Source: a virus. From it: a stretch of DNA of 64,000 nt. Below the pieces are notes generated by a model, which did not search any database, had not been told where the DNA came from, and worked only from the letters and a program-made list of their open reading frames with translations. Both the position numbers and the translations under genes were made by a program. The stretch lies in IMG/VR virus record IMGVR_UViG_3300003690_003155, positions 1 to 64,000 of that record, one strand, 5' to 3'. Every line of letters begins with the position of its first letter. Positions within the stretch are counted from its first letter, which is position 1. Below, one piece after another: positions 1 through 50,581 of the stretch.

Positions 1-8
1 ATGAAAGC

Positions 9-1679
9 TTGCTAGAAGATCCTAATTTTCCTGATTGGGCAAAAGATCTTCTTGCAAGAGGTATGGCCCACTCGGAAGCTGAGGATGAGGAACCTGGTTC
101 AGGTAAGATGAGTGATGAAGATTTTAAACGGTTTGAGACGCTAATGGATTCAAGTTATTTTGACGAGGATCCCGCTGGTGAGGTGTTCGATTATGAACAA
201 GAAGAGATGGAAGATATGTTGAAAGGTCGGACTGGAGCGCCCGATAATGTGAAATGGCTTGGTTCACTCGGTCCTACTCAAGGAGGCGATATACCAATGC
301 AAAGGAACTTGAATAAACATCAACCACCAACCGGCGATCTTCCGGGGTCAGCGCAGTGGCAATTCATGATACCTCCCGGTGGTGATGACAATGAATTAAT
401 TGGTAATGTTTTTGACTACATCATAAACCTCAAGCGTGAAGGAATTGGTTTTGATAAGTTACGCAAGATGAGTTTTGAAGGAGAGTTTTTACCTCAAGTC
501 GGAAATTATGTGAGAAAGATGGTTGTGGCTCATCAAGCTTTGGGTCACGCGCATGCACAGCAATCAGCCGCAGCAGATGCTCAAAAAGCTAAAGACGAGT
601 TACAAAAAGATCAGCTACCTAAAAGACCAGGCCAACCAGATGAATTCAGCGATGATGTAAATCCAAATGTTGAATGGTGGGCACCATCCGATTTTGAATG
701 GTGGGGGCGGCGGTTTGATGATGATGTTATTAATAGTGATAAGATTGAACAATATAAGAACATCGCTGATAAAATAATAGAGAATCCTTTTGACGACGGA
801 CTGCACCATTTTAATGGTCTAATGCTTCCCGACAAACACGACGGACTGCACCATTTTAATGGTCTAATGCTTCCCGACAAACGCGACGCGAAAATTAAAA
901 ACCTTAAACAAGAAGCACACGAATGGCTTGAGCATTATCATAGTACAAAGGATAGTAGAAAGCCCAATCAAGCACACATCAAACATCCATATGGAGTAGG
1001 TAGTCCTCAGAGTGCCTTACAAACTATGAGTTATCGACCAACGTTTAAACAGTTCTTTGCAGAGTCGCTTCAAGAAGGAATAACAGATAAAGCATTTATA
1101 CTATTGGCATATTCTGACAGAGGAATGAGTCAAATAAAGATTACATCTGTTCCGAAAGTAGATATGCCGACTGTGTTGTTAACTGGTCTTCGTGTAATGA
1201 ATGAAGATGGTGATGATGATAATCGCGAGGAAGGATTTGAAGTCATGGAACCAGAAGAGTTGTCTATACAAGAAGTAATAGCACAGTCTGGTGCGATCGA
1301 TGCCGATCTTACTCTTACGTATGATGATTTTCTTGCAATACGACAAGATCTCAATGGGATAAAAGCAGTTCTTGATGACGAAGCATTTGAGGATGAAGAT
1401 AGAGAAAATGTTACTAAGGTACTCACTAAGATAATTGACGATGGAGTAGCAGATTATTTTGAATTTCAAAAGGGTAATCATATGGAAGAAGAGCCTGATG
1501 TGATCTTCTTTCCAACAGATCCAAATAAATGGTGGGATATTAAGGCAACTGATCATGTTGACACTCTGATTAAGCAGCGCATTCGACAGAACTTTGGACA
1601 TGGATCGTCTGATCCATTAATTGATACAGATAACGAGAGTAAACATTCCACATTTAAGGAGTATTTTAATAAATATTAA
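9..1679 (+). CDS. large acidic hypothetical protein, probably 5'-truncated by the window edge; putative virion internal protein
   Basis: 556-aa ORF with internal TFKQFFAE and TFKEYF motifs resembling T4 capsid-targeting peptides. Confidence 0.6.
   Translation: MLEDPNFPDWAKDLLARGMAHSEAEDEEPGSGKMSDEDFKRFETLMDSSYFDEDPAGEVFDYEQEEMEDMLKGRTGAPDNVKWLGSLGPTQGGDIPMQRNLNKHQPPTGDLPGSAQWQFMIPPGGDDNELIGNVFDYIINLKREGIGFDKLRKMSFEGEFLPQVGNYVRKMVVAHQALGHAHAQQSAAADAQKAKDELQKDQLPKRPGQPDEFSDDVNPNVEWWAPSDFEWWGRRFDDDVINSDKIEQYKNIADKIIENPFDDGLHHFNGLMLPDKHDGLHHFNGLMLPDKRDAKIKNLKQEAHEWLEHYHSTKDSRKPNQAHIKHPYGVGSPQSALQTMSYRPTFKQFFAESLQEGITDKAFILLAYSDRGMSQIKITSVPKVDMPTVLLTGLRVMNEDGDDDNREEGFEVMEPEELSIQEVIAQSGAIDADLTLTYDDFLAIRQDLNGIKAVLDDEAFEDEDRENVTKVLTKIIDDGVADYFEFQKGNHMEEEPDVIFFPTDPNKWWDIKATDHVDTLIKQRIRQNFGHGSSDPLIDTDNESKHSTFKEYFNKY
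795..884 (+). repeat. 45-bp in-frame tandem duplication (DGLHHFNGLMLPDK x2)
   Basis: gacggactgcaccattttaatggtctaatgcttcccgacaaac at 795 and 840. Confidence 0.95.
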
Positions 1680-1680
1680 T

Positions 1681-2100
1681 ATGAGTGAACTTAACCATGC
1701 AGTGTCGCCGGCGTTTAATAATGCAATATTAGAGGTGATACCTTCTGTTGGGCTGCATCCTGGTCTTAGACCCGGTGAAGGAGCTGATGCGCTAGGGATA
1801 GCTAATAGCTATATGCAAAGACTAAACAAAGACACTAGTCGCCCTCAAGTGGTTGAACTTGATCCTTCTGCTGGTAGTGATTTAGTAGTATTGTATCCAG
1901 ACGCAGAGCATGGTGGGACGGTGGCTGTAATTGTTAAAGCTGGTACTGTAGTTTTCGCTGGTTTATCCTGGGAAAGCATTCAGCGACCTGCGCCAAAGAC
2001 ATCTTGGACTAATAAATTTAAATTTGGGAAACGTAAGCAAGAGCCTATAGATCCCGCAGCAACACCATGGACAGTTCCTCAACCCGGTACTGAAACTTAA
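1681..2100 (+). CDS. hypothetical protein
   Basis: start moved to ATG 1681, which lies 5 nt after TAAATA (1670-1675) and just after the upstream stop. Confidence 0.65.
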   Translation: MSELNHAVSPAFNNAILEVIPSVGLHPGLRPGEGADALGIANSYMQRLNKDTSRPQVVELDPSAGSDLVVLYPDAEHGGTVAVIVKAGTVVFAGLSWESIQRPAPKTSWTNKFKFGKRKQEPIDPAATPWTVPQPGTET

Positions 2101-2111
2101 AGGATAATAAA

Positions 2112-2684
2112 ATGACAGAAACAAATAAAGAAGAAGCAAAACTAATTTGGGAAGCCTTACAAGAAGGGAGCCCGTATATCGATTGGAGAAAGCATTCACC
2201 GCCGCCGGGCGAAGGGCCTACGCGTCGCGGTGACACGTTGACCGGCAAAGAGCGCGAAGGCGCTCTGTTTAACCCTGATAAATGGGTAGATTGTCCAGAG
2301 TGTAAAGATGGTAAGTTACCTGACGGTTCAACATGCGAGCATTGTGGTGGATCAGGAAGACATCCTAAACCAGAAAAAGCAAACGAGGGAGAAAGTCTCG
2401 ATGATTGGAATGATTACATGAATGCTGAAGGAGAGAATACAGCAGGATATATCCAAATTGATCTTTATACTGGCAGTGTTCAGACTGTAAGCCCTGATCA
2501 AGTACAACAGGCAGTTAGAGGTTTGGATAAAGTCGGACCAGATTCTGGTGATAGCGACTGGGATGCTTGGAGAGGTGAAGAGTATATGGTTGTTGCTATA
2601 CCAAGAACAGTGCACTGGCCAAAATCGGCTCGGAGCGAACCTGTTCCAGATCATAGTGACTTAATTCAACCTACAAAATATTAA
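2112..2684 (+). CDS. hypothetical protein with leader (KEEAKLIWEAL) and DnaJ-like Zn finger
   Basis: CPECKDG...CEHCGGSG; C-terminal WRGEEYMVV segment shared with the 9975 ORF. Confidence 0.7.
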   Translation: MTETNKEEAKLIWEALQEGSPYIDWRKHSPPPGEGPTRRGDTLTGKEREGALFNPDKWVDCPECKDGKLPDGSTCEHCGGSGRHPKPEKANEGESLDDWNDYMNAEGENTAGYIQIDLYTGSVQTVSPDQVQQAVRGLDKVGPDSGDSDWDAWRGEEYMVVAIPRTVHWPKSARSEPVPDHSDLIQPTKY

Positions 2685-2685
2685 T

Positions 2686-3195
2686 ATGAAAGATAAAGAC
2701 GCACAACTAATGATGGAAGCCTTACAGAAGTCTCATGAAGATAAAGAAATTACAACTGAGGGAGTTGGAACGGCCGCCGCGATGGTGGGTTTAGGTGCTG
2801 TTGGTGGCGCTCTTGCGAGTAAATTTTATGATCGCTTAGAAAAAAAGTGGAAAAGAAAGAAAGTATCTAAACATAAAGATGACTATCACGTTGAGCAAGG
2901 ACCAGTCGCCGATGTTGGTCGAGGCCTCGATGAGATAGTTCAGAATATTAAAAACTTTTTTAATAATGGTCAGGTTGATATTCCAAACACTGGAAATTGG
3001 GTTGAACTAACTGATGATCCTGGGATTAACCTCGCCGGTGAGTTAGAAGTTATTATGATTGGTATCGTTAAAGGCGCTCATGTCGAGCCACCCTTTGAAC
3101 CTGACAAATGGAGTGACGATGACTACAGAAAATGGCGAGATGATCCTAGATGGGGTAAACCTGGCGGACCTGGATCGCCGCCGCCTGGAAATTAA
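2686..3195 (+). CDS. hypothetical protein with MKDKDAQLMMEAL leader and one hydrophobic helix
   Basis: ORF; shared leader; GVGTAAAMVGLGAVGGALA segment. Confidence 0.7.
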   Translation: MKDKDAQLMMEALQKSHEDKEITTEGVGTAAAMVGLGAVGGALASKFYDRLEKKWKRKKVSKHKDDYHVEQGPVADVGRGLDEIVQNIKNFFNNGQVDIPNTGNWVELTDDPGINLAGELEVIMIGIVKGAHVEPPFEPDKWSDDDYRKWRDDPRWGKPGGPGSPPPGN

Positions 3196-3199
3196 AGCT

Positions 3200-3565
3200 A
3201 TGAGAGATAAAGACGCACAACTAATGATGGAAGCTTTGCGAGTGAAAGAAGCTGATTACGTACCACCTCATGATGAGGATAAGCTGAAGCGTGCTAGGCA
3301 ACGCGGATATGACGATGATAGCGGACCATTAGATAGAGTTGCTAATTTAGTCATAGATAAATTAGGAGATATAACGGATTATAGTTCATCGGCAGATTAT
3401 TCAGTTAGCGATCTTATTGATGTAACGATAGAAGATGTAGAGTCTGAAATGGGTGAACGGCAACATGATCTTAATGAACCTGACGCTAATGATAAAATTA
3501 AAGATTTAATTATTCGTAATCTTTCTGATGACCGGAGCCATTTAATGCAAGGATATGAACGGTGA
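3200..3565 (+). CDS. hypothetical protein with MRDKDAQLMMEAL leader
   Basis: start moved from 3059 to ATG 3200 to match the repeated leader. Confidence 0.7.
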   Translation: MRDKDAQLMMEALRVKEADYVPPHDEDKLKRARQRGYDDDSGPLDRVANLVIDKLGDITDYSSSADYSVSDLIDVTIEDVESEMGERQHDLNEPDANDKIKDLIIRNLSDDRSHLMQGYER

Positions 3566-3954
3566 GAGATATAGACGCACAACTAATGATGGAAGCCTTA
3601 AGGGAGGCCCGTCTAAGTTTTGAGTATAAAAATGTTGAGGATGACGGCTGGCCTCCGGAGGGCAGAGATTGGTTAGCACATGGAGATCAACCACCACCCT
3701 CAATTCCTGACGGGAGACTATTACCTGATACAGATATTCTCGCAAGGGTAGCCCGAGTGATGGATACTTACAAGCGCTCAGGATCGTCTCCTGCGTTTGT
3801 GAGCGCTATAATAGACGATTTAAACAGATTAATTGATGGCACAGGTGATGCAGATATTCTTCGACACTATGAAGGTTGGGGCATGGATGATATAGTTCAA
3901 CTTGTGGCGATACTCCAAAACAAATTCCGTAACATAGAGAACGATTTAGAATAA
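3562..3954 (+). CDS. hypothetical protein with MRDIDAQLMMEAL leader
   Basis: GTG start overlapping the upstream stop (GTGA); shared leader. Confidence 0.7.
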   Translation: MRDIDAQLMMEALREARLSFEYKNVEDDGWPPEGRDWLAHGDQPPPSIPDGRLLPDTDILARVARVMDTYKRSGSSPAFVSAIIDDLNRLIDGTGDADILRHYEGWGMDDIVQLVAILQNKFRNIENDLE

Positions 3955-5835
3955 ATGATAGATAAAGACGATAGACTGATTGCAGAGAGGTATTCCTCGC
4001 GAGGAAAACTAATCACAGAGGCTGAAGATCCTTACATCGCAGGTAAGGGTTGGCCAAAGTTCGGTCGTTTTCCTGGTGATGATCCTGGTGATGATACAGT
4101 CGCAGCTGGGCGCCCAGATAGTAATCAGTGGCCTTCTTATACTAATCGAGGTACTGAACTGCATATTGGTGCCTATACTCCTGAACGTTCGAAAGAGTTT
4201 GGTCAATACTTCTATGATGTTCTGAGAGCTAACAGTACTACTGTTAGTGATGAAGCAATTCACGCGCACGTAGATAACTGGATAGCTGATCAGCTAGCAC
4301 GCCGAAATCCACCAATAGATCCGACAAATCCACCACCTGAGTGGGCAACTACTATTGAATCTATCAAAGGGCTAGTACCCGCAGCTATGATGGATGCAAG
4401 AGAGGAAGATCCAACAACAGAGATGTATTCTGAAGCTATCCCTCCTCCAGCCCCTCACGCTGAGGCGATGATTCGGGAGGCAGAATACACACCGCCCGGT
4501 TGGCTGCCTGGTACTAATGTACCTCACCCAGATCGGCCAGCGCCGGTGCAGCGCGGGGCATGGGATGTACGTGGTAATGTGCAACCAGCTATTGGCAAGA
4601 CGATGGGAGACACAGTAGCTAAAAAAATAGATACTAACACACCAGAAGGAGCTTCTCAGTATATTGCAGCATGGATTTACGCCTCGACTGACGATGCTGC
4701 AAACACTGGTGAACCACCGCATAAGACTAGTACGGAAGGGTTGTTCGCGGCAGTAGAAGAGCTGTTTGATAGGTTTAATGCTGAACAAGTGAAGTGGATT
4801 AGAGATCAGTTAAGTAGCTTGAGATTTGCTTCAAAATTTGGAGATTCGACTCGAAATTTACTTGTAACTCGCATCGATGATATTACAAAAGAAAAATATC
4901 CACAAACATCAATGGTTGGAGATTTAAAGTCAGTTGAACTTGGAGACATCCCAAAGGATGTTGATTATTCCGGAATGGAACAAGATACGACAACGAATAA
5001 AAAATTTAAAGAGTTTTTCTTAGAGTACGAAGCTGATTTCGGTAAGGATCCTACTCCAGCTGCTGATTTTGGTAAGGCTCCTACTCCACAAGGAGCCCCT
5101 CCGCCAGTGGCCAGCGCACCTGGACCAGTAGGTAATCTGAAGAGTGCACTGATGGCTGCTAAGCCTGGCGATAGTTTTAGTATGATCGAAGTTGGTGATG
5201 CCTTATGGCCTGATGATACAATAACGAATAGACACGCGATTGAATTAAGATTGTATAGGCCTATGAAAATAGGAAGTATCTTTAAAGATATAGCGTTTAG
5301 AGCTAAGCATTTCGATTTTGATACCATGGGCGGGCGCACTGGTGCTCCACAGGGAGGTGGCGGCTGGGATGAATTTATAAAAGAGCTCGAAAGTCAAGTA
5401 GGTGGTACCTGGATGACCGATTATGGTATTGATCAAAAAAACCCAGAAGGTCTAGGTGGCCCAGGCCATAATTTTCAATTTGGTGATGATGTTCCAGGCA
5501 TCGTGAAACTAGGTTGGAATCCATTGAAATGGCCAGAGAATTATAGCAAAGAAATAGATAAAATGGGCATGACTCCTGAAATGAAATGGCTTCCACAAGT
5601 TAAAGTTTGGAAAGTTGACGATGATAATAGAACTCCAGGTACAGTCGGTATGATGGGCACATTTTCGCATGCAGATCCTATGGGGTATTGGAAGAAGAAG
5701 TCAACCACGGCAGGGGCGATTGGTTCTACTGATGCTGATCGTGCAGCAGATACTGCAGATCGACAGAAAAGTAGTGAATACATAGACGCTATAGCTAAAA
5801 AAATGGCCGCTGGTAAGAAAGAGTGGTGGACCTGA
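3955..5835 (+). CDS. large Pro/Gly/Asp-rich hypothetical protein with diverged leader (MIDKDDRLIAE)
   Basis: 626-aa ORF; internal KFKEFFLE motif; 30-bp tandem repeat ADFGKxPTP at about 5032-5088. Confidence 0.65.
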   Translation: MIDKDDRLIAERYSSRGKLITEAEDPYIAGKGWPKFGRFPGDDPGDDTVAAGRPDSNQWPSYTNRGTELHIGAYTPERSKEFGQYFYDVLRANSTTVSDEAIHAHVDNWIADQLARRNPPIDPTNPPPEWATTIESIKGLVPAAMMDAREEDPTTEMYSEAIPPPAPHAEAMIREAEYTPPGWLPGTNVPHPDRPAPVQRGAWDVRGNVQPAIGKTMGDTVAKKIDTNTPEGASQYIAAWIYASTDDAANTGEPPHKTSTEGLFAAVEELFDRFNAEQVKWIRDQLSSLRFASKFGDSTRNLLVTRIDDITKEKYPQTSMVGDLKSVELGDIPKDVDYSGMEQDTTTNKKFKEFFLEYEADFGKDPTPAADFGKAPTPQGAPPPVASAPGPVGNLKSALMAAKPGDSFSMIEVGDALWPDDTITNRHAIELRLYRPMKIGSIFKDIAFRAKHFDFDTMGGRTGAPQGGGGWDEFIKELESQVGGTWMTDYGIDQKNPEGLGGPGHNFQFGDDVPGIVKLGWNPLKWPENYSKEIDKMGMTPEMKWLPQVKVWKVDDDNRTPGTVGMMGTFSHADPMGYWKKKSTTAGAIGSTDADRAADTADRQKSSEYIDAIAKKMAAGKKEWWT

Positions 5836-5837
5836 TA

Positions 5838-6215
5838 ATGTTTAACGAGACAGTAAAGAAGATCCTTGAAAGAGATTATCAACCTTCTCCAACTTGGGAT
5901 GGTCGTGGCCGGCCACAGTCACAAGATCTATCTCAGGTATATTCTGACGAATTGAATGATCGACTTGCTAAAAACTGGGCGGATCTGTTGGTTTGGACGT
6001 GGAACTCCGCCGACTTGATGATGTCCAATGCCGACGCGAAAGAGGACGTACGGGAGCAGTGGCGAATCATACAGGGTGAACTGGGTTTTGAATCATTTAG
6101 GGGTCAGCTTTTTACGTATCTTGAAAATCACAAAGATCGAGACGCAGGGGCTGCAGTTCTTCGCATTATTAGACCTGACCATGGTGGTGCTGGTAAATTA
6201 GTGGGAGCTCCATGA
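5838..6215 (+). CDS. hypothetical protein
   Basis: ORF; likely start MFNETVKKILE just after the upstream stop. Confidence 0.6.
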   Translation: MFNETVKKILERDYQPSPTWDGRGRPQSQDLSQVYSDELNDRLAKNWADLLVWTWNSADLMMSNADAKEDVREQWRIIQGELGFESFRGQLFTYLENHKDRDAGAAVLRIIRPDHGGAGKLVGAP

Positions 6216-7132
6216 TGAATATAGTTACTTCAGTTGGTCACGATCCAGTAAAATTACATCATTTTATAGTATATTATAAATCTATAGGCGTTGATGACTT
6301 TCATGTTGTTGTGTGGGGCGATTCTGAGAAGGTACCATATGATGAGATCGTCGCTGTCTTAGACAGTCATGACTTATCAGTTTATAAAGATTATAGAGAT
6401 ACACAAATAAACGATATACGCTTCTTATCTAACATTTACAACGAGGCAGTAACAACTAAACCTGATGAATGGTGGATAGTGGCTGACTTAGATGAGTTTA
6501 ATATATTTCCAGATAGTCTCGAAGACTATATAACTAAGTTAGAAACATCCGGCCAAACTCATGCTAAGGGTATAATGCTAGATAGAATAGGTGTTGGTGG
6601 TGCGTTATCTGAACTACAAATGGATGATGTTATATGGGAAAAGTTTCCTAACGTTGGATATATCAGCAAAACTATACGTCAATGTGCCGCTATAACTGTA
6701 CCTCTATTTAAAAAAGGTGATACTAACCTCGAATTAGGTATCGGACAACATCGAGTCGATGAACTATTATTACAAAGACAGTATACCGGCATTGACGTCG
6801 TACGTGCTAGTACTATTGAGAAAGATAACCTCGAGAGAGGAAATAGCTTCTGGAAAGATAATACTATAGAAACTCATCACTTTAGATGGTCGAAACTAGA
6901 CTTCGATCTATTAAAAAATACAGAGAATTGGTGGGTATTGCAACCACCACAGGTAAACATGCATCGTGAATTGCAGAGAGAGGTTGACTATTTAGAAGCA
7001 AATCTAACAATTGATATATCTAATGCATTGTTCTTAGTAGACGGTAGCCCACATACAGATAAAGCGTACGGTGGGTATGAGCATTGGCAAACAGTTATCG
7101 ATGATCCAGCAATTGCGTGGCAGGCCCCTTGA
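6212..7132 (+). CDS. GT-A fold glycosyltransferase (GT2/GT92-like)
   Basis: FIVYYKSIGVDDFHV N-terminus, WWIVADLDEF DxD motif, IGQH and HHFRW motifs. Confidence 0.7.
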   Translation: MMNIVTSVGHDPVKLHHFIVYYKSIGVDDFHVVVWGDSEKVPYDEIVAVLDSHDLSVYKDYRDTQINDIRFLSNIYNEAVTTKPDEWWIVADLDEFNIFPDSLEDYITKLETSGQTHAKGIMLDRIGVGGALSELQMDDVIWEKFPNVGYISKTIRQCAAITVPLFKKGDTNLELGIGQHRVDELLLQRQYTGIDVVRASTIEKDNLERGNSFWKDNTIETHHFRWSKLDFDLLKNTENWWVLQPPQVNMHRELQREVDYLEANLTIDISNALFLVDGSPHTDKAYGGYEHWQTVIDDPAIAWQAP

Positions 7133-7139
7133 CGAGTGT

Positions 7140-7493
7140 ATGAATCTGCATAAACAAGGCAAGGTATGGGGCACTACACAGCCTCTCTTCAATAAGAATA
7201 ACGTCGAAATACATCGCATAGAGACTAATAAAGGTGGATACTGCAGCAAGCATAAACACCAACATAAGTATAATTGCTTCTACATAGAGAGAGGTAAGCT
7301 GAAGATAAGCGTATGGAAAAATGATTATGATCTAGTGGATACTACTATAATTTCTACCGGGGAAGCTACCACAGTTCCTCCTGGTGAATACCATGTATTC
7401 GAAGCACTGGAAGACTCTGTATGCTATGAGATATATTGGGTTGAGATATCTGATTCTGATATTGTAAGAGAAGACCACGGAGGTACTCGCTAA
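7140..7493 (+). CDS. cupin-domain protein (mannose-6-phosphate isomerase-like)
   Basis: KVWG...CSKHKHQHKYNCFYIERG...VPPGEYHVF cupin motifs; start moved to ATG 7140. Confidence 0.75.
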   Translation: MNLHKQGKVWGTTQPLFNKNNVEIHRIETNKGGYCSKHKHQHKYNCFYIERGKLKISVWKNDYDLVDTTIISTGEATTVPPGEYHVFEALEDSVCYEIYWVEISDSDIVREDHGGTR

Positions 7494-7725
7494 AAAACCT
7501 ATAGATAGATTAAAAAACATATGGTATTTCCAGAGAAGTACGTTTAACATTGTATATATTATATCTTCTCTACATATAAAAGCAAATAGAAAATACTATA
7601 TAACTTCTTAAACATGAACGAGATAGCACAAAGTTGTACGCGATATGTTAGAATTCTATACATATATACACGTCGATCCAGGATTTACTAACGGCCGCGC
7701 AGACAATTTCCCAGAAGTCTTTTAC

Positions 7726-7753
7726 TTGCAATCGCTGGAGGATAGGTTATAAT
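7726..7753 (+). promoter_or_regulatory. sigma70-type promoter
   Basis: TTGCAA-16 nt-TATAAT; ATG 7 nt downstream. Confidence 0.7.
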
Positions 7754-7760
7754 ATAGTCT

Positions 7761-8003
7761 ATGAACGCTAAGACATATGCACAATCCCAGTTGGATTTCG
7801 TAGGTGGTAACCGCGCTTCCTGGTTCAAGGATGGCGCTCGAGAACGTCGTGTGACGGTGGAGATGACCCGCCAGCCAAACGGCGAGTATTACATCAACTC
7901 AGCTAAGGCTAACTACAATGTAGGTGGCTCTGAAACTCAGGTTGGGGTGAACAATCGTTTACTTCGCAACGAGCTCCTCACTAGCAATATTACAACTGGC
8001 TAA
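7761..8003 (+). CDS. small early hypothetical protein
   Basis: ORF between a promoter and a terminator. Confidence 0.7.
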   Translation: MNAKTYAQSQLDFVGGNRASWFKDGARERRVTVEMTRQPNGEYYINSAKANYNVGGSETQVGVNNRLLRNELLTSNITTG

Positions 8004-8026
8004 TTATATAATAATTATATAACCGC

Positions 8027-8075
8027 AGGGGGGCGCGTACGCACCGGTAGCACGGTATATTCGCGCCCTCTTTTT
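8027..8075 (+). terminator. probable intrinsic terminator
   Basis: ggggggcgcg...cgcgccctc stem followed by a T run. Confidence 0.55.
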
Positions 8076-8112
8076 ATAATTTTCTTTACTTTACCGGGGG
8101 AAACCATGGGGG

Positions 8113-8171
8113 AAGTAAAGTGAAAGTAAAGTGAGATACCAGTTGCCGTATCCCCTAGAAGTTCATATCAT
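8113..8171 (+). promoter_or_regulatory. sigma70-type promoter with upstream AAAGTAAAGTG repeats (x2)
   Basis: aagtaaagtgaaagtaaagtg, then TTGCCG(8143)-17 nt-TATCAT. Confidence 0.55.
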
Positions 8172-8180
8172 ATTGGCGTT

Positions 8181-8624
8181 GTGAGTGAGATAGATAAGAC
8201 GATAAAGGCAGATTTGACAGGGATAGCTCAGCTCGAGCTGAACGTGCCAACTCTGGAGACGCGCGGAAATGATAGCTTAGATTTCCATGATTGTTCGGTG
8301 CGGAGTATCGAGCGAGCGCTCGAACGTGCATATGAGCTTGGCCGTGAGGCTAATCGCGAATGGGGCATTCAGCTCGGTATTGAGATGGGCTTGAAGCGCG
8401 CCATGGATATTACTTCTAGGGATTTGCATAATTTCAAATTCCCGGAGGGTCAGATTCCGATCGATATGCCGCTCGAGCAGTACGCGCCGAAGGATGATTC
8501 GACATTTGAATTCTCGTACAAGACGTACGAAGAGCGCACGCTGGAGAAGGATGTTGCTGCGCGCAATGTGAGGCGTCGCCGTGCTAATCGCATGGTATCA
8601 AAGAATCGCAGAAATCGGAAATAA
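8181..8624 (+). CDS. DUF6900-like domain protein with basic C-terminal tail
   Basis: TLETRGNDSLDFHDCSVRSIERALERAYELG motif. Confidence 0.65.
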   Translation: MSEIDKTIKADLTGIAQLELNVPTLETRGNDSLDFHDCSVRSIERALERAYELGREANREWGIQLGIEMGLKRAMDITSRDLHNFKFPEGQIPIDMPLEQYAPKDDSTFEFSYKTYEERTLEKDVAARNVRRRRANRMVSKNRRNRK

Positions 8625-8627
8625 AGC

Positions 8628-8655
8628 TTGCCGTTTCCAGAGAAGCATTTATAAT
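8628..8655 (+). promoter_or_regulatory. sigma70-type promoter
   Basis: TTGCCG-16 nt-TATAAT. Confidence 0.6.
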
Positions 8656-8674
8656 ATTGTTTGTTGTGAGAGAT

Positions 8675-8863
8675 ATGAATCATAAAGTTAAAGTGGCGAA
8701 GGGAATCTTCGGATTCGTCTTCGAGAATAGAGACAAGCTTGACACGAACGTTTATCGGACGTTGACGCACGATCTCGGGATCATCATTCGTGGTGACAAG
8801 TTGGCGATGCCATACACAGCTGGCAAAGAGACTGTGATGGAGAAGATCATAGCTGGAAATTAA
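8675..8863 (+). CDS. small early hypothetical protein
   Basis: ORF after a promoter; ATG 8675 preferred as start. Confidence 0.6.
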   Translation: MNHKVKVAKGIFGFVFENRDKLDTNVYRTLTHDLGIIIRGDKLAMPYTAGKETVMEKIIAGN

Positions 8864-8866
8864 AGC

Positions 8867-8894
8867 TTGACGAATTCGGAAAAGCATATATAAT
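8867..8894 (+). promoter_or_regulatory. sigma70-type promoter
   Basis: TTGACG-16 nt-TATAAT; ATG 6 nt downstream. Confidence 0.7.
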
Positions 8895-8900
8895 ATTGAT

Positions 8901-9050
8901 ATGAACGCTGATTGCGAACAGAAGATGACGGAGAAAGAAACTGATAATCTCAGAGCGTGGAAGCGTTGGGGGTTGCAGATGAAGCTATTGAAGAGTATTC
9001 ACAGAGAGATCGCGCCTAAGAAGCAATTTTTACACAATGCCCTTAACTAA
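8901..9050 (+). CDS. 49-aa hypothetical protein (not in ORF track)
   Basis: MNADCEQKMTEKETDNLRAWKRWGLQMKLLKSIHREIAPKKQFLHNALN*, directly after the promoter. Confidence 0.55.
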   Translation: MNADCEQKMTEKETDNLRAWKRWGLQMKLLKSIHREIAPKKQFLHNALN

Positions 9051-9108
9051 AGAAGAATTTATACCGCATGGTTTAAGCAGATTTGCTACCACCCCTAAAA
9101 AAAAGATT

Positions 9109-9576
9109 ATGAGTACGAATAGTAAGAAGAACCCCGCCCCAGTGCTGGCATGTGTCATTACTGGACAATCGCGGAAGACATCACACAACTACTTGAACGA
9201 TAAGGCCAAGCGCCTTGGAGTTGCGAGCGATTGGTTGCTTAACAATTATGTTAGCAAGTTTGTTTGTAGTCAGCTGCGCGCTGGTAAAGCGCTTAGTGAC
9301 CTGCAAACGACAGATCTTAAGATCACAGATCAGTTATTGACTGATATGGTTAGGAAGAACTCCAAGAGCCGCATAACAAATTTCTGGTTCAAGAATGGGG
9401 TTTATCAGACATCCAAGCCAACACCCAAGAAGGTTGCGAAGACGAATCCAAAAGTCAACGTTGACGATCTCACCGCAAAGGTGAAGGAAGAGCAAGCTGA
9501 GGCTGCAACGGTCCCGGCACCTGTGAAGGAAGCTACCTTTGATGAGGTGTTGGATGAGCTTACACAGCTAAGCTAA
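9109..9576 (+). CDS. hypothetical protein
   Basis: ORF; ATG 9109 after an A-rich leader preferred over 9037. Confidence 0.65.
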   Translation: MSTNSKKNPAPVLACVITGQSRKTSHNYLNDKAKRLGVASDWLLNNYVSKFVCSQLRAGKALSDLQTTDLKITDQLLTDMVRKNSKSRITNFWFKNGVYQTSKPTPKKVAKTNPKVNVDDLTAKVKEEQAEAATVPAPVKEATFDEVLDELTQLS

Positions 9577-9593
9577 CCCACGACACAACAACG

Positions 9594-9628
9594 AGAGGTG
9601 AGGATCCATGCGGTTCTCACCTCTTTGT
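9594..9628 (+). terminator. hairpin terminator
   Basis: agaggtgagga...ttctcacctct followed by ttgt. Confidence 0.6.
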
Positions 9629-9634
9629 ATGCGT

Positions 9635-9705
9635 AAAGTAAAGTGAAAGTAAAGTGAAAGTAAAGTGAAATAACTGTTGACTTTTTCCGTATCTGGAGCT
9701 ATAAT
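9635..9705 (+). promoter_or_regulatory. near-consensus sigma70 promoter with three upstream 11-bp repeats
   Basis: (AAAGTAAAGTG)x3 at 9635-9667; TTGACT(9677)-17 nt-TATAAT(9700). Confidence 0.8.
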
Positions 9706-9772
9706 ATATATTCTGTTTTAGTAAAAGACAGATTAAAAAGTGAAAAATAGTAATAATAATAAAAATAATAAT

Positions 9773-9961
9773 ATGATTAAGATATTAGATAAGAATGGAT
9801 TGGAGATTGAAGTTGGTCAAATTGTTAAGATTAAAGGTAATGATGTTGAAGATTGTGTAGTGTGTGGGTTTGATAATGGTAGAGTAGATGTTATAGAGTT
9901 AGGTGAAGGGTTTGTTATAGATGGTAAAGAGATAGAAGTTGTTAGTGAATTGAATGGTTAA
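9773..9961 (+). CDS. cytosine-depleted small protein, predicted SH3-like beta barrel
   Basis: ATG after taataaaaataataat; only one C in the gene; no Ala, Pro, Thr or His. Confidence 0.7.
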   Translation: MIKILDKNGLEIEVGQIVKIKGNDVEDCVVCGFDNGRVDVIELGEGFVIDGKEIEVVSELNG

Positions 9962-9974
9962 TAAAAATAATAAT

Positions 9975-10319
9975 ATGAAAAAGATAATTAAAGATAGTAT
10001 GAGAGATAGTAATAAGAATTATATATTAGTTTGGTTAGGTGTTGATAATGGTAAGAGTGAAGTTATAAAAGGTGATTTAGATTTATGGATTGGAGGTACT
10101 GAAGTTATAGAAGGGAGTAATAAAGTATGGATGGGTGAAGAGTATATGGTTGTAGAAGTAGAGGTGAGTATGTTAGGTAAAAAGGTAGAGGTGTTAGATG
10201 ATGAAGGTAAGGTTATAGAAGATGGTATATGTATAGGTGTTGATGAGGATGAAGTATTGTTATATGATAGAGGTGAAGGGTTTAGTTGTGATATAAAGAA
10301 TAGTAGAGTAGTTTGGTAG
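9975..10319 (+). CDS. cytosine-depleted two-domain small protein
   Basis: same taataaaaataataat leader; only one C in the gene; no Ala, Pro, His or Gln. Confidence 0.7.
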   Translation: MKKIIKDSMRDSNKNYILVWLGVDNGKSEVIKGDLDLWIGGTEVIEGSNKVWMGEEYMVVEVEVSMLGKKVEVLDDEGKVIEDGICIGVDEDEVLLYDRGEGFSCDIKNSRVVW

Positions 10320-10338
10320 TATAAAAGAAAGATATAAT

Positions 10339-10497
10339 ATGAATAAGAAATATAAAATAGTATATAAGAGTGAGTATACTTTTACTGAAGAGGAAGTAAA
10401 AGGATTAGATAATATAGATAATGTTATACAAGAATGTATTGATCAAGATAGTAGTGAACATTCTGATAAGTCTAATTGGGAGGTAGTAGAAGTATAG
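10339..10497 (+). CDS. 52-aa C-poor acidic protein (not in ORF track)
   Basis: MNKKYKIVYKSEYTFTEEEVKGLDNIDNVIQECIDQDSSEHSDKSNWEVVEV*. Confidence 0.6.
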   Translation: MNKKYKIVYKSEYTFTEEEVKGLDNIDNVIQECIDQDSSEHSDKSNWEVVEV

Positions 10498-10511
10498 TAT
10501 AACTTTTATAT

Positions 10512-10560
10512 AGAGTAGGTGAGGCTATATAGACATCCTATATAGTCTCTCTTCCTCTCT
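10512..10560 (+). terminator. long hairpin closing the C-less operon
   Basis: gaggctatatag-acatc-ctatatagtctc stem, extended by agagtagg/cctctct. Confidence 0.55.
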
Positions 10561-10680
10561 ATAGTACTTAAGTACGAGAATCCGGATTATATAGAGGTTT
10601 CATGGACCCCGGTTCTGAGGGCATGCAAAACTTTTTTTCGCGAATTTTTTTTCATTAGAATTATAAGATAAATATTGTAT

Positions 10681-11535
10681 ATGGATTGGACACCTGGAGA
10701 TTCGAATCACCCTTTAATGGAGAAAAGGAAATTACGAAAATTATTAGGATTTGAACATAAACATGGTCCTCATATTCCCGATGACGATATACAAGCAATC
10801 ATCAACAATCAGCATCACCAATCCCATCGTGCATTATTAACGCCGGATCCGGGAGGTGGATGGTCTATCCAAAAAGTATATTTTAATAAGCGTATTAATA
10901 CGATGGATAGGCGTAGATTCGAAAACGAAATAAGAATGTTAACTGAATTAGAGGAGAATTTTACAAATACACCTAAACTCGATTATTATCCATTTCCAAA
11001 GATATTATCAATTGATCATAAAAAATGTTTAACGACGATGACTTACTGTGGTCCTTGTTTAAATAAAACACATGGCTCAGAAGCAGCACACAATTGGGCA
11101 AAAGACAAGCCGAATACTATAGTTAACGAAGTAAATGATATAATAGAATGTATTATTAATAATTTAACAAATAATTTAATTATATATTCCGACATACATC
11201 CTGGAAATATATGTATTAATAATAATAATCTATTCTTAATTGATTTTGACAGTGCTTATTTCTTAAGAAAATCATCACCAGAAGCTACAAGAGAATTTTA
11301 TTCTGATTTTTACGACAAAAAACACATTATGTTAAATGATAGAAACCGTAAAATATCTGTAGAGTCCATGGCTATCTTAATTAATAAACTTGACAGTAAT
11401 GAAGATGTAAATAATGGAACCTGGAGACCGGTTAACTGTTCACATCATAAAGCTCCTAAGCCATTAAAAGCCGGAGCCAACATATGGCATATATTAACTA
11501 TGTTAGAATTGCCAATCTCTCCAGAGACATTATAA
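10681..11535 (+). CDS. protein kinase-like fold protein (RIO/Kdo/APH type)
   Basis: FENEIRML helix, catalytic DIHPGN, IDFD; ATG 10681 lies 6 nt after TAAATA. Confidence 0.7.
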   Translation: MDWTPGDSNHPLMEKRKLRKLLGFEHKHGPHIPDDDIQAIINNQHHQSHRALLTPDPGGGWSIQKVYFNKRINTMDRRRFENEIRMLTELEENFTNTPKLDYYPFPKILSIDHKKCLTTMTYCGPCLNKTHGSEAAHNWAKDKPNTIVNEVNDIIECIINNLTNNLIIYSDIHPGNICINNNNLFLIDFDSAYFLRKSSPEATREFYSDFYDKKHIMLNDRNRKISVESMAILINKLDSNEDVNNGTWRPVNCSHHKAPKPLKAGANIWHILTMLELPISPETL

Positions 11536-11536
11536 T
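11509..11536 (+). promoter_or_regulatory. sigma70-type promoter
   Basis: TTGCCA-16 nt-TATAAT. Confidence 0.6.
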
Positions 11537-11538
11537 AG

Positions 11539-11817
11539 GTGCATATGAAAGATCGATATTACACAGTCGAACATTTCTGTCAAGGTCATCGGACACCGCC
11601 ACGGTGTCGTGCTCTCACTGGGGTCGATTATCCAGTAATAACAAAGACTGAGACTAGATTTCATGCAAAAGAGTATGGTGATAAAACATTATCATTAGCG
11701 ATAGAGAAAGCTAAACAAAATCATACTAATGTATTTGATAACAATGGAAATGATATCTGGAACTGGGACGACTGGATAATTTCATTAGCTTGTAGCCCTA
11801 AACATAAATTGGCATAA
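11539..11817 (+). CDS. hypothetical protein
   Basis: ORF; ATG 11545 is an alternative start. Confidence 0.6.
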   Translation: MHMKDRYYTVEHFCQGHRTPPRCRALTGVDYPVITKTETRFHAKEYGDKTLSLAIEKAKQNHTNVFDNNGNDIWNWDDWIISLACSPKHKLA

Positions 11818-11825
11818 ATTATTAT

Positions 11826-12107
11826 ATGCTTCGAGGGATAATAAAGAATTACGATAAAAGTCCTGATACATTACCATTACAAGCTTTTCATATTAAGCTT
11901 ACACAAAGAGATCTAGATGAAATACATCATCTAGTTAAAAGAGGTTATGCAGGGTTAACATTAGCATGGAAGCCAGCAATGATTGCTGTAACTAAAATCT
12001 TAGATCAAATTAGTGAGCAAGATGAAGAATTCGCTAAATTAGATAATTATGATAGTGATGGAACAAGATACCCGGCTCATGCACCAGAACATGAAGAACT
12101 AGATTAA
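11826..12107 (+). CDS. hypothetical protein
   Basis: ORF within an operon. Confidence 0.6.
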   Translation: MLRGIIKNYDKSPDTLPLQAFHIKLTQRDLDEIHHLVKRGYAGLTLAWKPAMIAVTKILDQISEQDEEFAKLDNYDSDGTRYPAHAPEHEELD

Positions 12108-26283: not shown

Positions 26284-29132
26284 AAGCTAAGTCCTTTCCT
26301 AAGTTGATAATCTAGATTATTAAAAATTATACCACCATCATTTTCCCAGCTTGCACTAAGAGAAGATGTTGATCTTGAGATTGTTGTATAAGGATTATTA
26401 TAATCTATGATACTGTTTTCAATATTTTCAGCCGATAAGGTTGTATCATATGCTGTATATGGATAAAATTCATACAATAAATCTAAACCACTAGCACCAG
26501 ATACTGTTGTATCTAATTCCCAGCCCCAGTTACTATATACATTATACGTAGACAGTGGATATGTAGCTGACACACCAGCTGTTGAACCATCTACACTTTT
26601 TGCAGGTACTTGTTGAGGTTTAATTAAAATATATTCACTATTAAATTTTTGTAATGCTACAAATTTTGTATCTGCTGTCACTTCATAAGTTAATGAAGTG
26701 ATGGGAGATGTAAAATCTATATTTCTACCAGCAGCAGAGCTTGTATAATATTGTGTGTCGAAATTATCATTAACTCTATGGTAGTCACCTAAAAGTTTAG
26801 AAATTTTAATACTAAATAAGTTATATAATCTTTTTAATTCAGGCGGTGGATTAGGTGATACAAAATCAATATCTTCATTAAAAAAGTCATAGAATGCTTG
26901 TATATTTTCTATTTTACAAAAATCAATATCAGTATTATTTGAAACAAAATTAGCTGTTTTCTCAAATATAGTTTTACCGAATACAGTAGGGCTTGAACTT
27001 GCTTGACCTACAAACGATGTAAAAACACCATCAAATAAATTATCATATTCATGTAAGAAGGATTGAAATCTATAACTTTTTAATACTTGAGAATAATCTA
27101 TATCTTCGTTTATTTTATATATTTCAACGTCATTAGTCGACGGGCTTATTGTAAAGGTATATGAACCTGTTATTATATTAGTGCCTTTTACTCCCAGAGA
27201 CACAGAACCATATGGTCCTGTAGAATCATAATCTATAGTTTGTCCATATGCAGAAAGTGAAGATAGAGAGGAAAAATTGTTTTGACGGCCAGTTACATTT
27301 AATGTCCATGTACCAGAGTCAACTGGATCAATATTAAGATATAAAAAGCTACTTAATTCTGTTTTTTCTGTTGTTAGATTATACGGTAAACTGGTAGTAC
27401 TTAAACTACTTATATTACTTGTTGATGTTGTAGCCCCACTAACCCACTCAACAAAAAATTGATTACAATCAATTGAAACATCACTTACTATACCGTCAAA
27501 ATCCTCAGTGGCTTGTATGTACAATCTTTGAGGTTGAGTATTATCTGCATCAACAAGTATAATGTGAGTCTTATTTTCTGTTAATCCATCTTGACTGTAT
27601 GGTGGTGATGGGTCAGTAGTACCTAAAAATAACCTTACCCACCCTGTGGAGCGACTAGATATGGTTAAAGAAACTTCATATTCTTTTCCTAGAACTGTAT
27701 TTACATCTTGATATAAATTGTTAACACCACCGGTGTGTGCAAAGTGAGCAGCTCCAATACCGGCTGATAAATGCCATCCTGTAAGCGGAGTTCCATCTGC
27801 AGAGATTGTAGCGGTCCAGGCGCTTAATGTGCTAGTGTGATCATCAGCAAAATTTCCATTAGAGAGAGATATGAAATTACTAGTAGGTTCATGGAAAAAT
27901 TGTGAAAAATATTTACCTATGTTTAATTCTTCATCTGCTAAGCCGATAAATAATTGAAATTTATCACCTTGTCTTTTATATTGTATAGCAGACATTTCCT
28001 TCATTCCGGTAGATGTAAAAGATAATCTTGTCGGCGCCGACGGTATTATTTTTATTGGGATTCCGGCAATAGCATTAACGTTATCAGTGCTTACTCCTGC
28101 AAAGTTTGTTTCTAAGTGATTTCTTTCGCTTAAGTTTATATCTGTAACTAAATTATCTATATAAAAGTTTTTTAATTTATGTGTACTTGTATCTAATCTA
28201 ATTAATAAATTTACACGATCACTTCCAATATAATTAATTATATCATCATAATAATAAAACTTTTCTCCAGTGTCACTAGCAGTATGTATTCTAGCCCTAT
28301 AGGTTGCTAGATCTAAACCATAAGAATCATTGAGTGATCGCCTCGTACTTGAATAAAGTAAGAATTTATCCGCCTTCGGTTGATCTTCGGATGTTATAGG
28401 AGAAACTTGACTATTAGTATCTATAAAAAAATATTGTGGATTTAATTGATATTGTACTCCGTCAATACTATTTATAAGATTTATATTTTTATCATAAAAT
28501 GCGCTATATGGTATTAAATGAGCATATTTATTATTAATATCATATGGTTTTGCCTTACTACCACTAGCCGTGAAATATACTGTATGAGGTTCGTCTGGGT
28601 CGGGAACATCTTGCCAGCTTGCTGTGAGACCAACACCTAAAGATCTATCCCCTTGTACTGGTTTTTTACCGGCGGTAATAGATATTGGATTATCTGTATC
28701 TACATCTTTTACGCTTATGCTTATTCTAGTACTTGCATAATTATATACACTTAATTGTTCTGTTAATGTATTAATATGAGAATTACCGTCTTTATCATAA
28801 AAGAAAACTGTTACAGTATATACACCCGGTACATTATATGTATGTGTTGATGAAAATACATTATCACCACTTAATGTATGTCCATCTCCAAAATCCCATA
28901 CAGCTGTTGAGATTGATAGATCTATCAAGGAGTCTTGTATAGACAGTCCAGTGGTGCCAACGGGACCGAGTAGAGGGTTAAAAGTAAATTTTGATATACG
29001 AGTAAATCCACTATGTGAACTTGCTAAAGAATGTCCAGCTATTGGAGTGGGAGCGTCCGCAGATGTATTAACAGTAATCGATATAGGTACTGGTAAAGAG
29101 AGAGGACAATTAGAATCATTTGGATCACTCAT
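26280..29132 (-). CDS. PKD-domain baseplate wedge protein (gp7-like position)
   Basis: WDFGDG...HTYNVPGVYTV PKD motif; adjacent to gp6. Confidence 0.6.
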   Translation of the reverse strand: MSDPNDSNCPLSLPVPISITVNTSADAPTPIAGHSLASSHSGFTRISKFTFNPLLGPVGTTGLSIQDSLIDLSISTAVWDFGDGHTLSGDNVFSSTHTYNVPGVYTVTVFFYDKDGNSHINTLTEQLSVYNYASTRISISVKDVDTDNPISITAGKKPVQGDRSLGVGLTASWQDVPDPDEPHTVYFTASGSKAKPYDINNKYAHLIPYSAFYDKNINLINSIDGVQYQLNPQYFFIDTNSQVSPITSEDQPKADKFLLYSSTRRSLNDSYGLDLATYRARIHTASDTGEKFYYYDDIINYIGSDRVNLLIRLDTSTHKLKNFYIDNLVTDINLSERNHLETNFAGVSTDNVNAIAGIPIKIIPSAPTRLSFTSTGMKEMSAIQYKRQGDKFQLFIGLADEELNIGKYFSQFFHEPTSNFISLSNGNFADDHTSTLSAWTATISADGTPLTGWHLSAGIGAAHFAHTGGVNNLYQDVNTVLGKEYEVSLTISSRSTGWVRLFLGTTDPSPPYSQDGLTENKTHIILVDADNTQPQRLYIQATEDFDGIVSDVSIDCNQFFVEWVSGATTSTSNISSLSTTSLPYNLTTEKTELSSFLYLNIDPVDSGTWTLNVTGRQNNFSSLSSLSAYGQTIDYDSTGPYGSVSLGVKGTNIITGSYTFTISPSTNDVEIYKINEDIDYSQVLKSYRFQSFLHEYDNLFDGVFTSFVGQASSSPTVFGKTIFEKTANFVSNNTDIDFCKIENIQAFYDFFNEDIDFVSPNPPPELKRLYNLFSIKISKLLGDYHRVNDNFDTQYYTSSAAGRNIDFTSPITSLTYEVTADTKFVALQKFNSEYILIKPQQVPAKSVDGSTAGVSATYPLSTYNVYSNWGWELDTTVSGASGLDLLYEFYPYTAYDTTLSAENIENSIIDYNNPYTTISRSTSSLSASWENDGGIIFNNLDYQLRKGLSL

Positions 29133-46180: not shown

Positions 46181-46261
46181 AGTAAACCTTTACAAATATT
46201 TATTGTTTTCCGCTGACATATTTTAGTTGATTTGGCGAAATAAGCATTATAATATAAATAT

Positions 46262-50569: not shown

Positions 50570-50571
50570 TA

Positions 50572-50581
50572 TAAATATTTA
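50572..50581. promoter_or_regulatory. palindromic bidirectional late-promoter motif TAAATATTTA
   Basis: TAAATA on both strands, 5-6 nt from the divergent starts at 50569 and 50583. Confidence 0.6.

Follow-up and report, generated by a model that had tools for sequence, protein, structure and literature searches.

In bacteriophage T4, a capsid-targeting sequence (CTS) at the N terminus, about ten residues long, brings internal proteins into the prohead and is removed afterwards by the head protease, as outlined in one account (PMC7697877); a second describes these proteins as diverse defence proteins with only the CTS in common (PMC3012670), and a third presents Alt as an internal head protein injected with the DNA, and ModA and ModB as further ADP-ribosylating enzymes that are early products (PMC2988021). 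Here, we compare with these systems two genes, the open reading frames (ORFs) ORF2112 and ORF9954, found in a 64,000-nucleotide stretch ('the window') that comprises positions 1–64,000 of the 122,091-base IMG/VR virus record IMGVR_UViG_3300003690_003155, estimated to be 61% complete. Sequence comparison makes it a well-founded conclusion that both proteins carry a homologous domain of ~50 residues, one that becomes visible only through intermediate relatives.

The virus, a marine phage, is a T4-like myovirus by its PHROG matches, which include a baseplate wedge protein (29132–30964), a tail sheath protein (43520–46177) and a large terminase (48851–50566), while megablast of window positions 1–12000 against 50,697 phage records found no isolate phage matching at the DNA level. 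As with the T4 internal proteins (IPI, IPII, IPIII and Alt), a short N-terminal leader is common to unrelated neighbouring genes, and the same genome encodes a T4-type prohead protease (gp21, Peptidase_S77, PF03420; 101.8 bits, at 118564–119019 of the 122-kb record). Unlike them, the ORF2112 gene string is known from its sequence alone, and neither ORF2112 nor the neighbouring leader-tagged ORFs match any Pfam or PHROG family. The division of labour between Alt and ModA/ModB, in the terms of the account cited above, resembles what we propose here, namely one type of activity that is injected and also made early. Those ADP-ribosyltransferases, however, span several hundred residues and have known targets, whereas our domain has ~50 residues and no enzymatic signature, and its early copy is a fusion with another protein, rewritten without cytosine (C). 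The multi-module proteins that phages and conjugative elements use in host conflicts, described as polyvalent proteins with 2 to 15 often enzymatic domains (Iyer et al. 2017, PMC5512222), are comparable in kind; members of the present family have 1 to 3 small modules. Small early anti-defence proteins such as Acr and Ocr are similar in size, early promoter and restriction to phage genomes, but no relation to them was detectable, AcrIE2 coming up with a Z of just 3.2, which is chance level (the searches did not include PADLOC or an anti-defence library).

The features of the two genes are listed below. Fetched phage loci are denoted L0xx and relative proteins P00xx; X1, X3, X5 and X15 are public runs from four studies.

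2112–2684, + strand: ORF2112, 190 amino acids (aa), leader-tagged, shared domain C-terminal (ORF list; nine relatives at E ≤ 0.01)
2112–2153, + strand: N-terminal leader, residues 1–14, ending in LIWE, like a T4 capsid-targeting sequence (direct repeat family D2 and regular-expression scan)
2292–2357, + strand: two CxxC motifs (CPECKDGK ... CEHCGGSG), likely a zinc ribbon, varying among relatives (sequence, alignment A2)
2442–2621, + strand: shared domain in ORF2112, residues 111–170, C content 16.7% (conserved block in alignment A2; envelopes of hidden Markov models, HMMs)
2574–2593, + strand: first copy of a 20-mer encoding GEEYMV(V), exact match inside ORF2112
9954–10319, + strand: ORF9954, 121 aa, likely start ATG 9975, a widespread 68-aa C-free protein plus an inserted domain (homologue coverage)
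10008–10166, + strand: in-frame insert of 159 nucleotides (nt), residues 19–71, boundaries good to a few nt (gap against L042; HMM match to residues 20–70)
10134–10153, + strand: second copy of the 20-mer encoding GEEYMV(V), exact match inside ORF9954

Homology of the two domains

The original prediction had aligned ORF2112 by eye with an 'ORF 9975', which is the ATG at 9975 within the listed ORF 9954–10319, and a profile of stand-alone family members returned the same alignment. Direct comparison detected little of this likeness. BLASTP of ORF2112 against ORF9954 gave nothing significant (the high-scoring segment pair over the motif had an E value of 33). An HMM of nine close ORF2112 relatives placed ORF9954 at rank 2 of the record's 1481 six-frame ORFs (11.2 bits, E 0.02, 13 residues aligned), and the part of this model upstream of the motif ranked it 71st. 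Similarly, hhalign of the ORF2112 family against ORF9954 reported a probability of 88.8% and a score of 31.4, but controls in which the nine motif residues were kept and the 38 upstream residues shuffled scored 32.4 ± 1.9, with 191 of 200 reaching the real value. Because these controls score equally, the close-relative profile score comes wholly from the motif.

Profile alignment became significant once intermediate sequences were used. An HMM of 18 distinct stand-alone members, none from this genome, gave 55.3 bits for ORF2112 (E 3e-16) and 40.8 bits for ORF9954 (E 1e-11; residues 20–70 on model positions 1–50), the next ORF scoring 7.8. With the motif masked, ORF2112 retained 30.3 bits and ORF9954 13.8 bits (E 0.0022, rank 2 of 1481; next 7.4). 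Shuffling the insert never reproduced its score, either for the whole insert (43.6 bits against a maximum of 11.9; 0 of 2000) or for its portion before the motif (17.2 bits, with shuffles peaking at 10.0; again 0 of 2000). Three other proteins of the C-free cassette scored at most 0.9 bits with the family HMM, so the restricted alphabet is not the cause of the ORF9954 match. The bridge was also visible with tblastn, in which ORF9954 residues 20–69 matched the stand-alone genes of L019–L022 (51% over 51 aa, E 1e-5) and these genes matched ORF2112 residues 113–163 (43%, E 1e-7). The choice of model mattered for the edge of the domain: hmmalign to a mixed-family HMM left the first nine residues of the insert unaligned, and the HMM of stand-alone members aligned them.

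Two alternatives to this shared descent, or to its simple form, have to be weighed. The domains might have no common ancestry, W-x-GEEYMVV being a short motif that arose twice. Such motifs do arise, since 14 IMG/VR loci without a relative of ORF2112 or ORF9954 have W-x-GEEYM[VI] (13 in open frames belonging to other proteins, one in a frame interrupted by stops), and the pairwise and close-family tests described above detect the motif alone. Yet the masked-profile and shuffle tests are significant and collinear, and the intermediates share 51% and 43% identity with ORF9954 and ORF2112, respectively; we regard convergence as refuted by these tests and give it next to no credence, the C-free controls opposing an alphabet artefact as well. 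The other alternative concerns the 20-mer GGTGAAGAGTATATGGTTGT, which was reported originally as an identical pair and is indeed exact, with two copies in the window (none of 100 shuffles had two) and 24 of 26 nt identical when flanks are included. It is one of eight exact repeats of at least 20 nt in the window, the other seven being leader, tandem or promoter-associated repeats. A duplication of recent date within this genome, or gene conversion of a short patch between the two genes, would account for 20 identical bases, including five matching synonymous sites, where chance 20-mers are expected about zero times. Against it, the DNA flanking the two copies could not be aligned by MAFFT; the same motif codons are found again in metagenome loci that are unrelated; and few members resemble the insert less than ORF2112 does once the motif is set aside. 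At 26 motif sites of other loci, 16–20 of the 20 bases are identical to the 20-mer, L023 having all 20, and among 15 distinct sites GGT was used 10 times, GAA 14, GAG 10 and TAT 13. Members bearing GEEYMVV thus often share the 20-mer DNA because the peptide is conserved and its codons are preferred family-wide. Recent exchange is therefore largely refuted, chiefly by codon recurrence and by the shuffle comparison given below, and we rejected it as very improbable. The identical 20-mer is a by-product of an invariant GEEYMV peptide and the family's preferred codons, which leaves recent exchange unneeded.

A phage domain family with two gene classes

The domain defines a previously undescribed family of ~50 residues without a Pfam, PHROG, PDB or isolate-phage match. 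Its signature reads Y-I-x-[IL]-D-L-Y-T-G ... A-[IV]-x-G-L ... [WY]-x-G-E-E-Y-M-V, with D9, L10, Y11, G13, A26, G29, L30, G42, E44, Y45 and M46 (P0055 numbering) invariant in the family. A profile search with the ORF2112 family alignment in 1.84 billion representative proteins returned 22 matches at E ≤ 1e-3, among them four stand-alone proteins (47–57 aa) and distant members whose loop is shorter. Scanning metagenome contigs yielded 34 confirmed loci from 118 pattern matches, to which IMG/VR added one (A5); IMG/VR scans with ORF2112 and ORF9954 as single proteins found no relatives, and alignment A4 was too diverse for scanning. The 35 loci comprise 19 stand-alone genes (51–58 aa), 11 leader-tagged genes, two other leaderless ones (82 and 101 aa) and three partial ones. 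Leader, zinc ribbons, acidic linkers, the domain and further C-terminal parts are combined in various members, and many distant members have similar leaders. All members found come from contigs of uncultured aquatic phages, and the relatives examined are partial records (39–61% complete, or short contigs). No match was obtained by tblastn of P0055 and ORF2112 against the 50,697 phage records, and a scan of 185,579 prokaryote species (one genome each) with A6 gave 26 pattern matches and no relatives. The original proposal to look for the contexts of the W-x-GEEYMVV domain in relatives was thus fruitful in revealing two gene architectures, whereas the W-x-GEEYM[VI] pattern scan itself gave only unrelated loci.

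The stand-alone protein P0055 was modelled with a predicted local distance difference test (pLDDT) score of 90.9 and a predicted template modelling (pTM) score of 0.72, as strand-strand-helix-strand-strand-strand. Using it as the comparison, the predicted folds could be matched only in part: residues 22–69 of the ORF9954 model contain five strands in the P0055 order, at low confidence (pLDDT 47–63, against 70–85 for the C-terminal domain) and with no helix. Searches with the P0055 model gave a best VIA-align wide Z of 4.2, below the level common for unrelated chains, only uncharacterised phage proteins in BFVD (best E 8.9e-4) and no named neighbour at 0.9 or above in the ESM Atlas.

ORF2112 and its nine relatives are of similar length and have a conserved C-terminal block of 60 residues behind variable N-terminal parts; in alignment A2, ORF2112 retains every family-invariant residue. 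Its CxxC region presumably resembles the DnaJ CxxCxGxG motif, without a Pfam match. The gene opens a tightly packed string:

2686–5835, + strand: four further leader-tagged ORFs (2686–3195, 3200–3565, 3562–3954 and 3955–5835), tightly packed with ORF2112 (repeats D1, D2 and D12)

Repeat family D2 links the ORF2112 leader to those of the ORFs starting at 2686, 3200 and 3562, and the GTG-start ORF3562 is tied to the cluster through repeats D1/D2. A regular-expression scan found such leaders on long ORFs in only one cluster of the 122-kb record (starts 2112, 2686, 3200 and 3955), and five neighbouring ORFs (starts 2112, 2686, 3200, 3562 and 3955) have a common leader on unrelated cargo. T4-type prohead proteases cleave according to the rule (L/I)-x-E, and the leader ends IWE, MME and IAE fit this rule. 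Elsewhere in the window, exact TATAAATA occurs at 46253–46260 and 50570–50577, before late-looking + strand genes, only 1–5 nt ahead of the ATG of genes 46262 and 50583 and hence closer than usual for a T4 late promoter.

The two gene classes also differ in their upstream regions. A TTGNNN-16..18-NATAMT promoter lies within 70 nt upstream of 15 of 18 stand-alone genes versus one of 11 leader-tagged genes (4.1% of random positions), and the late-type motif NATAAATA lies within 40 nt of none of the 18 versus five of the 11 (background 0.9%); the 18 and 11 loci include close copies and correspond to 15 and 9 distinct upstream sequences. In 13 stand-alone loci (among L019–L031 and L017), the -10 element ends 5 nt before GTGATG, which would make the messenger RNAs (mRNAs) nearly leaderless; judged by this spacing, the early mRNAs of these loci are probably leaderless or nearly so. 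The stand-alone gene adjoins homologues of ORF9037 in L017, L025, L026, L028 and L029; in the present genome it is the C-free unit that adjoins ORF9037.

The cytosine-free unit and its insert

ORF9954 lies in a small transcription unit with the following features:

9593–9630, + strand: GC-rich hairpin followed by a T-run after ORF9037, likely a terminator isolating the C-free unit (read from the sequence; conserved in L042)
9677–9705, + strand: sigma70-like promoter serving the C-free unit, TTGACT-17-TATAAT (agrees with the consensus at 11 of 12 positions; same arrangement in L042)
9714–10378, + strand: cytosine-depleted stretch of 665 nt with three C (9729, 9818 and 10099), no second region of this kind being present on either strand of the 122-kb record
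9740–9961, + strand: ORF9740, 73 aa, likely start ATG 9773, a paralogue of the ORF9954 C-terminal domain (alignment A3; 85% identical homologue in L042)
10339–10497, + strand: third small ORF of the C-free unit, 52 aa, C-free up to 10378 (ORF list, sequence)

The usual C content is ~16%. The description of ORF 9975 as 'C-less' therefore needs slight correction, as it contains one C (10099), and holds in that the gene is nearly C-free within a stretch that has three. A terminator scan did not list the hairpin at 9593–9630. Three AAGTAAAGTGA repeats (9636–9673, repeat family D3) precede the promoter; such repeats stand just upstream of sigma70-like promoters (10–11 of 12 matches) at 8113–8134 as well as at 9636–9673. 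Sigma70-like promoters were seen at 7726, 8628, 8867, 9677 and 11509, and the 7.7–11.6 kb region looks like an early-gene block. ORF9037 (9037–9576) had no PHROG match at E ≤ 1e-5. Its homologues adjoin the stand-alone domain gene in the five loci named above, as tandem pairs in four and singly in L029 (the L017 copy lies at 7277–7954), and have in common a motif around C-x-[IV]-T-x(3)-R ... Y-L-x(2)-K-A ... N-N-Y-[IV]-S-K. Apart from these genes, a large ORF at 9–1679 contains a perfect 45-nt tandem duplication (793–882) that encodes the 15-residue DGLHHFNGLMLPDKx twice, the last position being H and then R.

The composition of ORF9954 follows from comparison with a close relative, L042, in which terminator, promoter and C-free genes recur and the 68-aa gene is without the 159-nt in-frame block; ORF9954 is thus the common C-free protein plus an inserted domain. 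Among 35 homologues of ORF9954, 34 are ~66–71 aa long and cover only the C-terminal 41–43% of the query, at 79–98% identity. Pfam gave no match for ORF9954, and PHROGs a single one at E 0.02. The insert is bridged by contigs of X1, X3 and X5, and X15 sequence extends over 9868–10296 with six base differences and five small insertions; the gene with its insert is found again, little changed, in four public runs. The one run labelled as RNA is only tentatively so and consists of contigs, and uncovered parts in X3 and X15 carry no meaning. An A-rich junction, TAATAAAAATAATAATATGA, precedes each C-free gene (9757–9776 and 9959–9978). A minor X1 contig joins 9961 to 10345 and drops ORF9954, and a loose contig end at 9979 (X1) reads like the start of an extra C-free ORF of L042; from these two observations, cassette genes seem to be shuffled as modules at the TAATAAAAATAATAATATGA junction.

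As to where the insert came from, its Smith–Waterman score outside the motif was reached by 0–3 of 2000 shuffles when compared with P0059, P0060, P0055, P0053, P0056 and P0058, and by 321 of 2000 when compared with ORF2112. By this measure, the insert is nearest to short-loop and stand-alone members and is not a copy of ORF2112, and the simplest history is that a stand-alone early gene was fused into a neighbouring C-free gene. An origin as internal duplicate of the cassette's own 48-aa domain was also considered and rejected (hhalign probability 2%).

The insert has one C in 159 nt (10011–10169), compared with 16.7% in the ORF2112 domain and 4.6–23% in the domain DNA of 21 other family members, all of which except L051 have at least 11%. 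Every codon for A, P, T, H and Q contains C. Within these bounds, the insert keeps L10, G13, G29, G42, E44, Y45 and M46; the Pro that usually follows the second strand is Lys, and the Thr replacing the invariant Leu of G-L is written with the only C of ORF9954. All 12 substitutions seen inside 9714–10378 in public-run contigs are to A, G or T (probability ~0.008 if the three alternative bases are equally likely), and selection against C appears to continue in the cassette. The corresponding early unit of L042 (13630–14576) has no C over 947 nt and three ORFs, and the early-unit proteins are without A, P, T, H and Q. Since all synonymous sites avoid C, the constraint acts on nucleotides.

Further C-poor sense-strand segments (at most 4 C per 150 nt), with small ORFs of 0–7% C, were observed ~0.3–3.5 kb from the family gene in ten further loci:

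L017 6236–6469; L019 2983–3215; L021 8580–8812; L025 1566–1905 and 3925–4074; L027 598–747: C-poor segments, sense strand
L036 5763–6029; L047 1079–1311; L048 11606–11803 and 12133–12604; L050 11612–11799: C-poor segments, sense strand
L052 8893–9047, 10863–11840, 11984–12133 and 13573–13813: C-poor segments, sense strand

No G-poor segment was present in any fetched locus, and small genes depleted of C look like a more general trait of these phages. A general reading, which we hold to have not quite even chances, is that a cassette rule (no C in the sense strand or mRNA) forced the domain into the 15 C-free amino acids at the cost of Ala, Thr, Leu and Pro, and that this rule is a device for early expression or evasion of defence across phages. 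It would be a general device because C-depleted small genes lie near the stand-alone gene in eleven other loci. Possible readings of the rule are that transcripts become immune to a C-dependent nuclease or deaminase, are made without cytidine triphosphate (CTP) or are kept unstructured. If the rule holds, the domain is one cargo that needs to be produced under it. A literature search for 'cytosine-free' with phage early genes did not find the term in the papers listed; other wordings were not searched, so the phenomenon may be published.

Proposed two-route delivery of the domain

The reading we lean towards is that the domain is delivered at the start of infection by two routes, through head-targeted ORF2112 and early ORF9954, and acts on the host. 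Its component claims, virion packaging of ORF2112, immediate-early expression of ORF9954 and effector activity, are each plausible from gene context. The packaging and processing of ORF2112 are suggested by its T4-like leader and by the T4-type prohead protease encoded in the genome, and the assignment of ORF2112 as late rests on leader and relatives, its own promoter not being recognisable. The two-route idea fits the family, in which stand-alone copies stand behind sigma70-like promoters and leader-tagged copies have NATAAATA. Under this proposal, the leader would take ORF2112 into the prohead, where the protease would then cut it off and may also release the domain at NAE|G, ten residues before the domain, a step for which the support is weak. 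The ORF2112 domain would enter the cell along with the phage DNA, host polymerase would transcribe the C-free unit in the first minutes to make more of it, and the domain would act in the host cytoplasm at the onset of infection. Being too small for an enzyme and having no obvious catalytic residues, it would most likely serve as a compact binder, either blocking a host defence or taking over a factor of the host; as no structure or fold search gives a functional lead, function is argued from context.

Several observations weigh against this proposal. On the ORF2112 side, there is no recognisable promoter within 70 nt upstream of the gene and no exact TATAAATA in the window before 13113, hence none near the ORF2112 string, and only 13 of the 27 long proteins have an xxAE site in the 30 residues upstream of the domain. 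ENAE/EDAE-type protease sites before the domain, considered on the basis of these 13 proteins and of an AE frequency of 1.7 versus 0.8 per 100 aa, were too weak to claim. On the ORF9954 side, the insert is otherwise found only in P0010 (115 aa) among the 35 homologues, its AlphaFold model is of the low confidence given above, without a helix, and it departs from the family at D9 (W), A26 (W) and L30 (T), with Y11 and T12 of DLYTG changed as well. Given the loss of several invariant residues, equal function of this copy is not assured, and it may not be doing what other copies do. No solved structure clearly matched the P0055 model (the best PDB hit with Foldseek had E 0.12). Furthermore, L042 has a leader-tagged gene and C-free genes and no insert, and L043 is without a C-free cassette in the stretch seen; as both are without the early copy there, double supply is not a general need. 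The original prediction of one effector domain supplied twice is partly supported: the shared domain is real and supply by two routes fits the family-wide gene classes, but the early copy is a divergent insert and not a twin of ORF2112.

Two other explanations accept the homology and dispute the role. The domain could serve in structure or assembly, for example by binding packaged DNA or the scaffolding core, with stand-alone and ORF9954 copies serving phage DNA or particle metabolism. The leader-tagged members sit within strings of head-targeted genes, the domain is small and acidic, and it has no similarity to known anti-defence proteins in Pfam, PHROGs or fold searches (a PADLOC or anti-defence library not being among those searched). 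A prohead role, however, poorly fits the 19 stand-alone copies, which are leaderless and in 15 of 18 cases stand behind sigma70-like promoters, and the T4 internal proteins that have only the CTS in common are described as defence proteins in the source cited (PMC3012670); we consider a structural module rather unlikely. A decaying passenger, homologous but non-functional and kept by selection on the cassette, would explain why family-invariant residues are replaced in the ORF9954 insert, why its model is of low confidence, why only two of the 35 homologues of the 68-aa protein carry it and why the minor X1 contig (9961 joined to 10345) lacks ORF9954. The reading frame is nevertheless unbroken, the segments Y-I-L and G-K-S-E-V-I have been retained along with the GEEYMVV strand, the P0010 insert differs from that of ORF9954 by three conservative changes and one residue indel, and the insert is spanned by the X1, X3 and X5 contigs, with X15 covering 9868–10296. 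A mere passenger is improbable on this evidence, and delivery of an active domain by two routes remains the reading we prefer.

Overall, the family adds a new compact, confidently foldable phage domain whose two routes, as we read them, target the opening minutes of infection; it would share this mode of delivery with known anti-defence and host-takeover proteins. The recoded domain is a rare natural experiment, in which a nucleotide-level constraint imposed a 15-letter alphabet on a conserved domain. The insert shows which positions fold or function can give up, and that the no-cytosine rule outranks protein conservation. Together, the natural variants, stand-alone, head-targeted and fused, form a short list for finding the host target.

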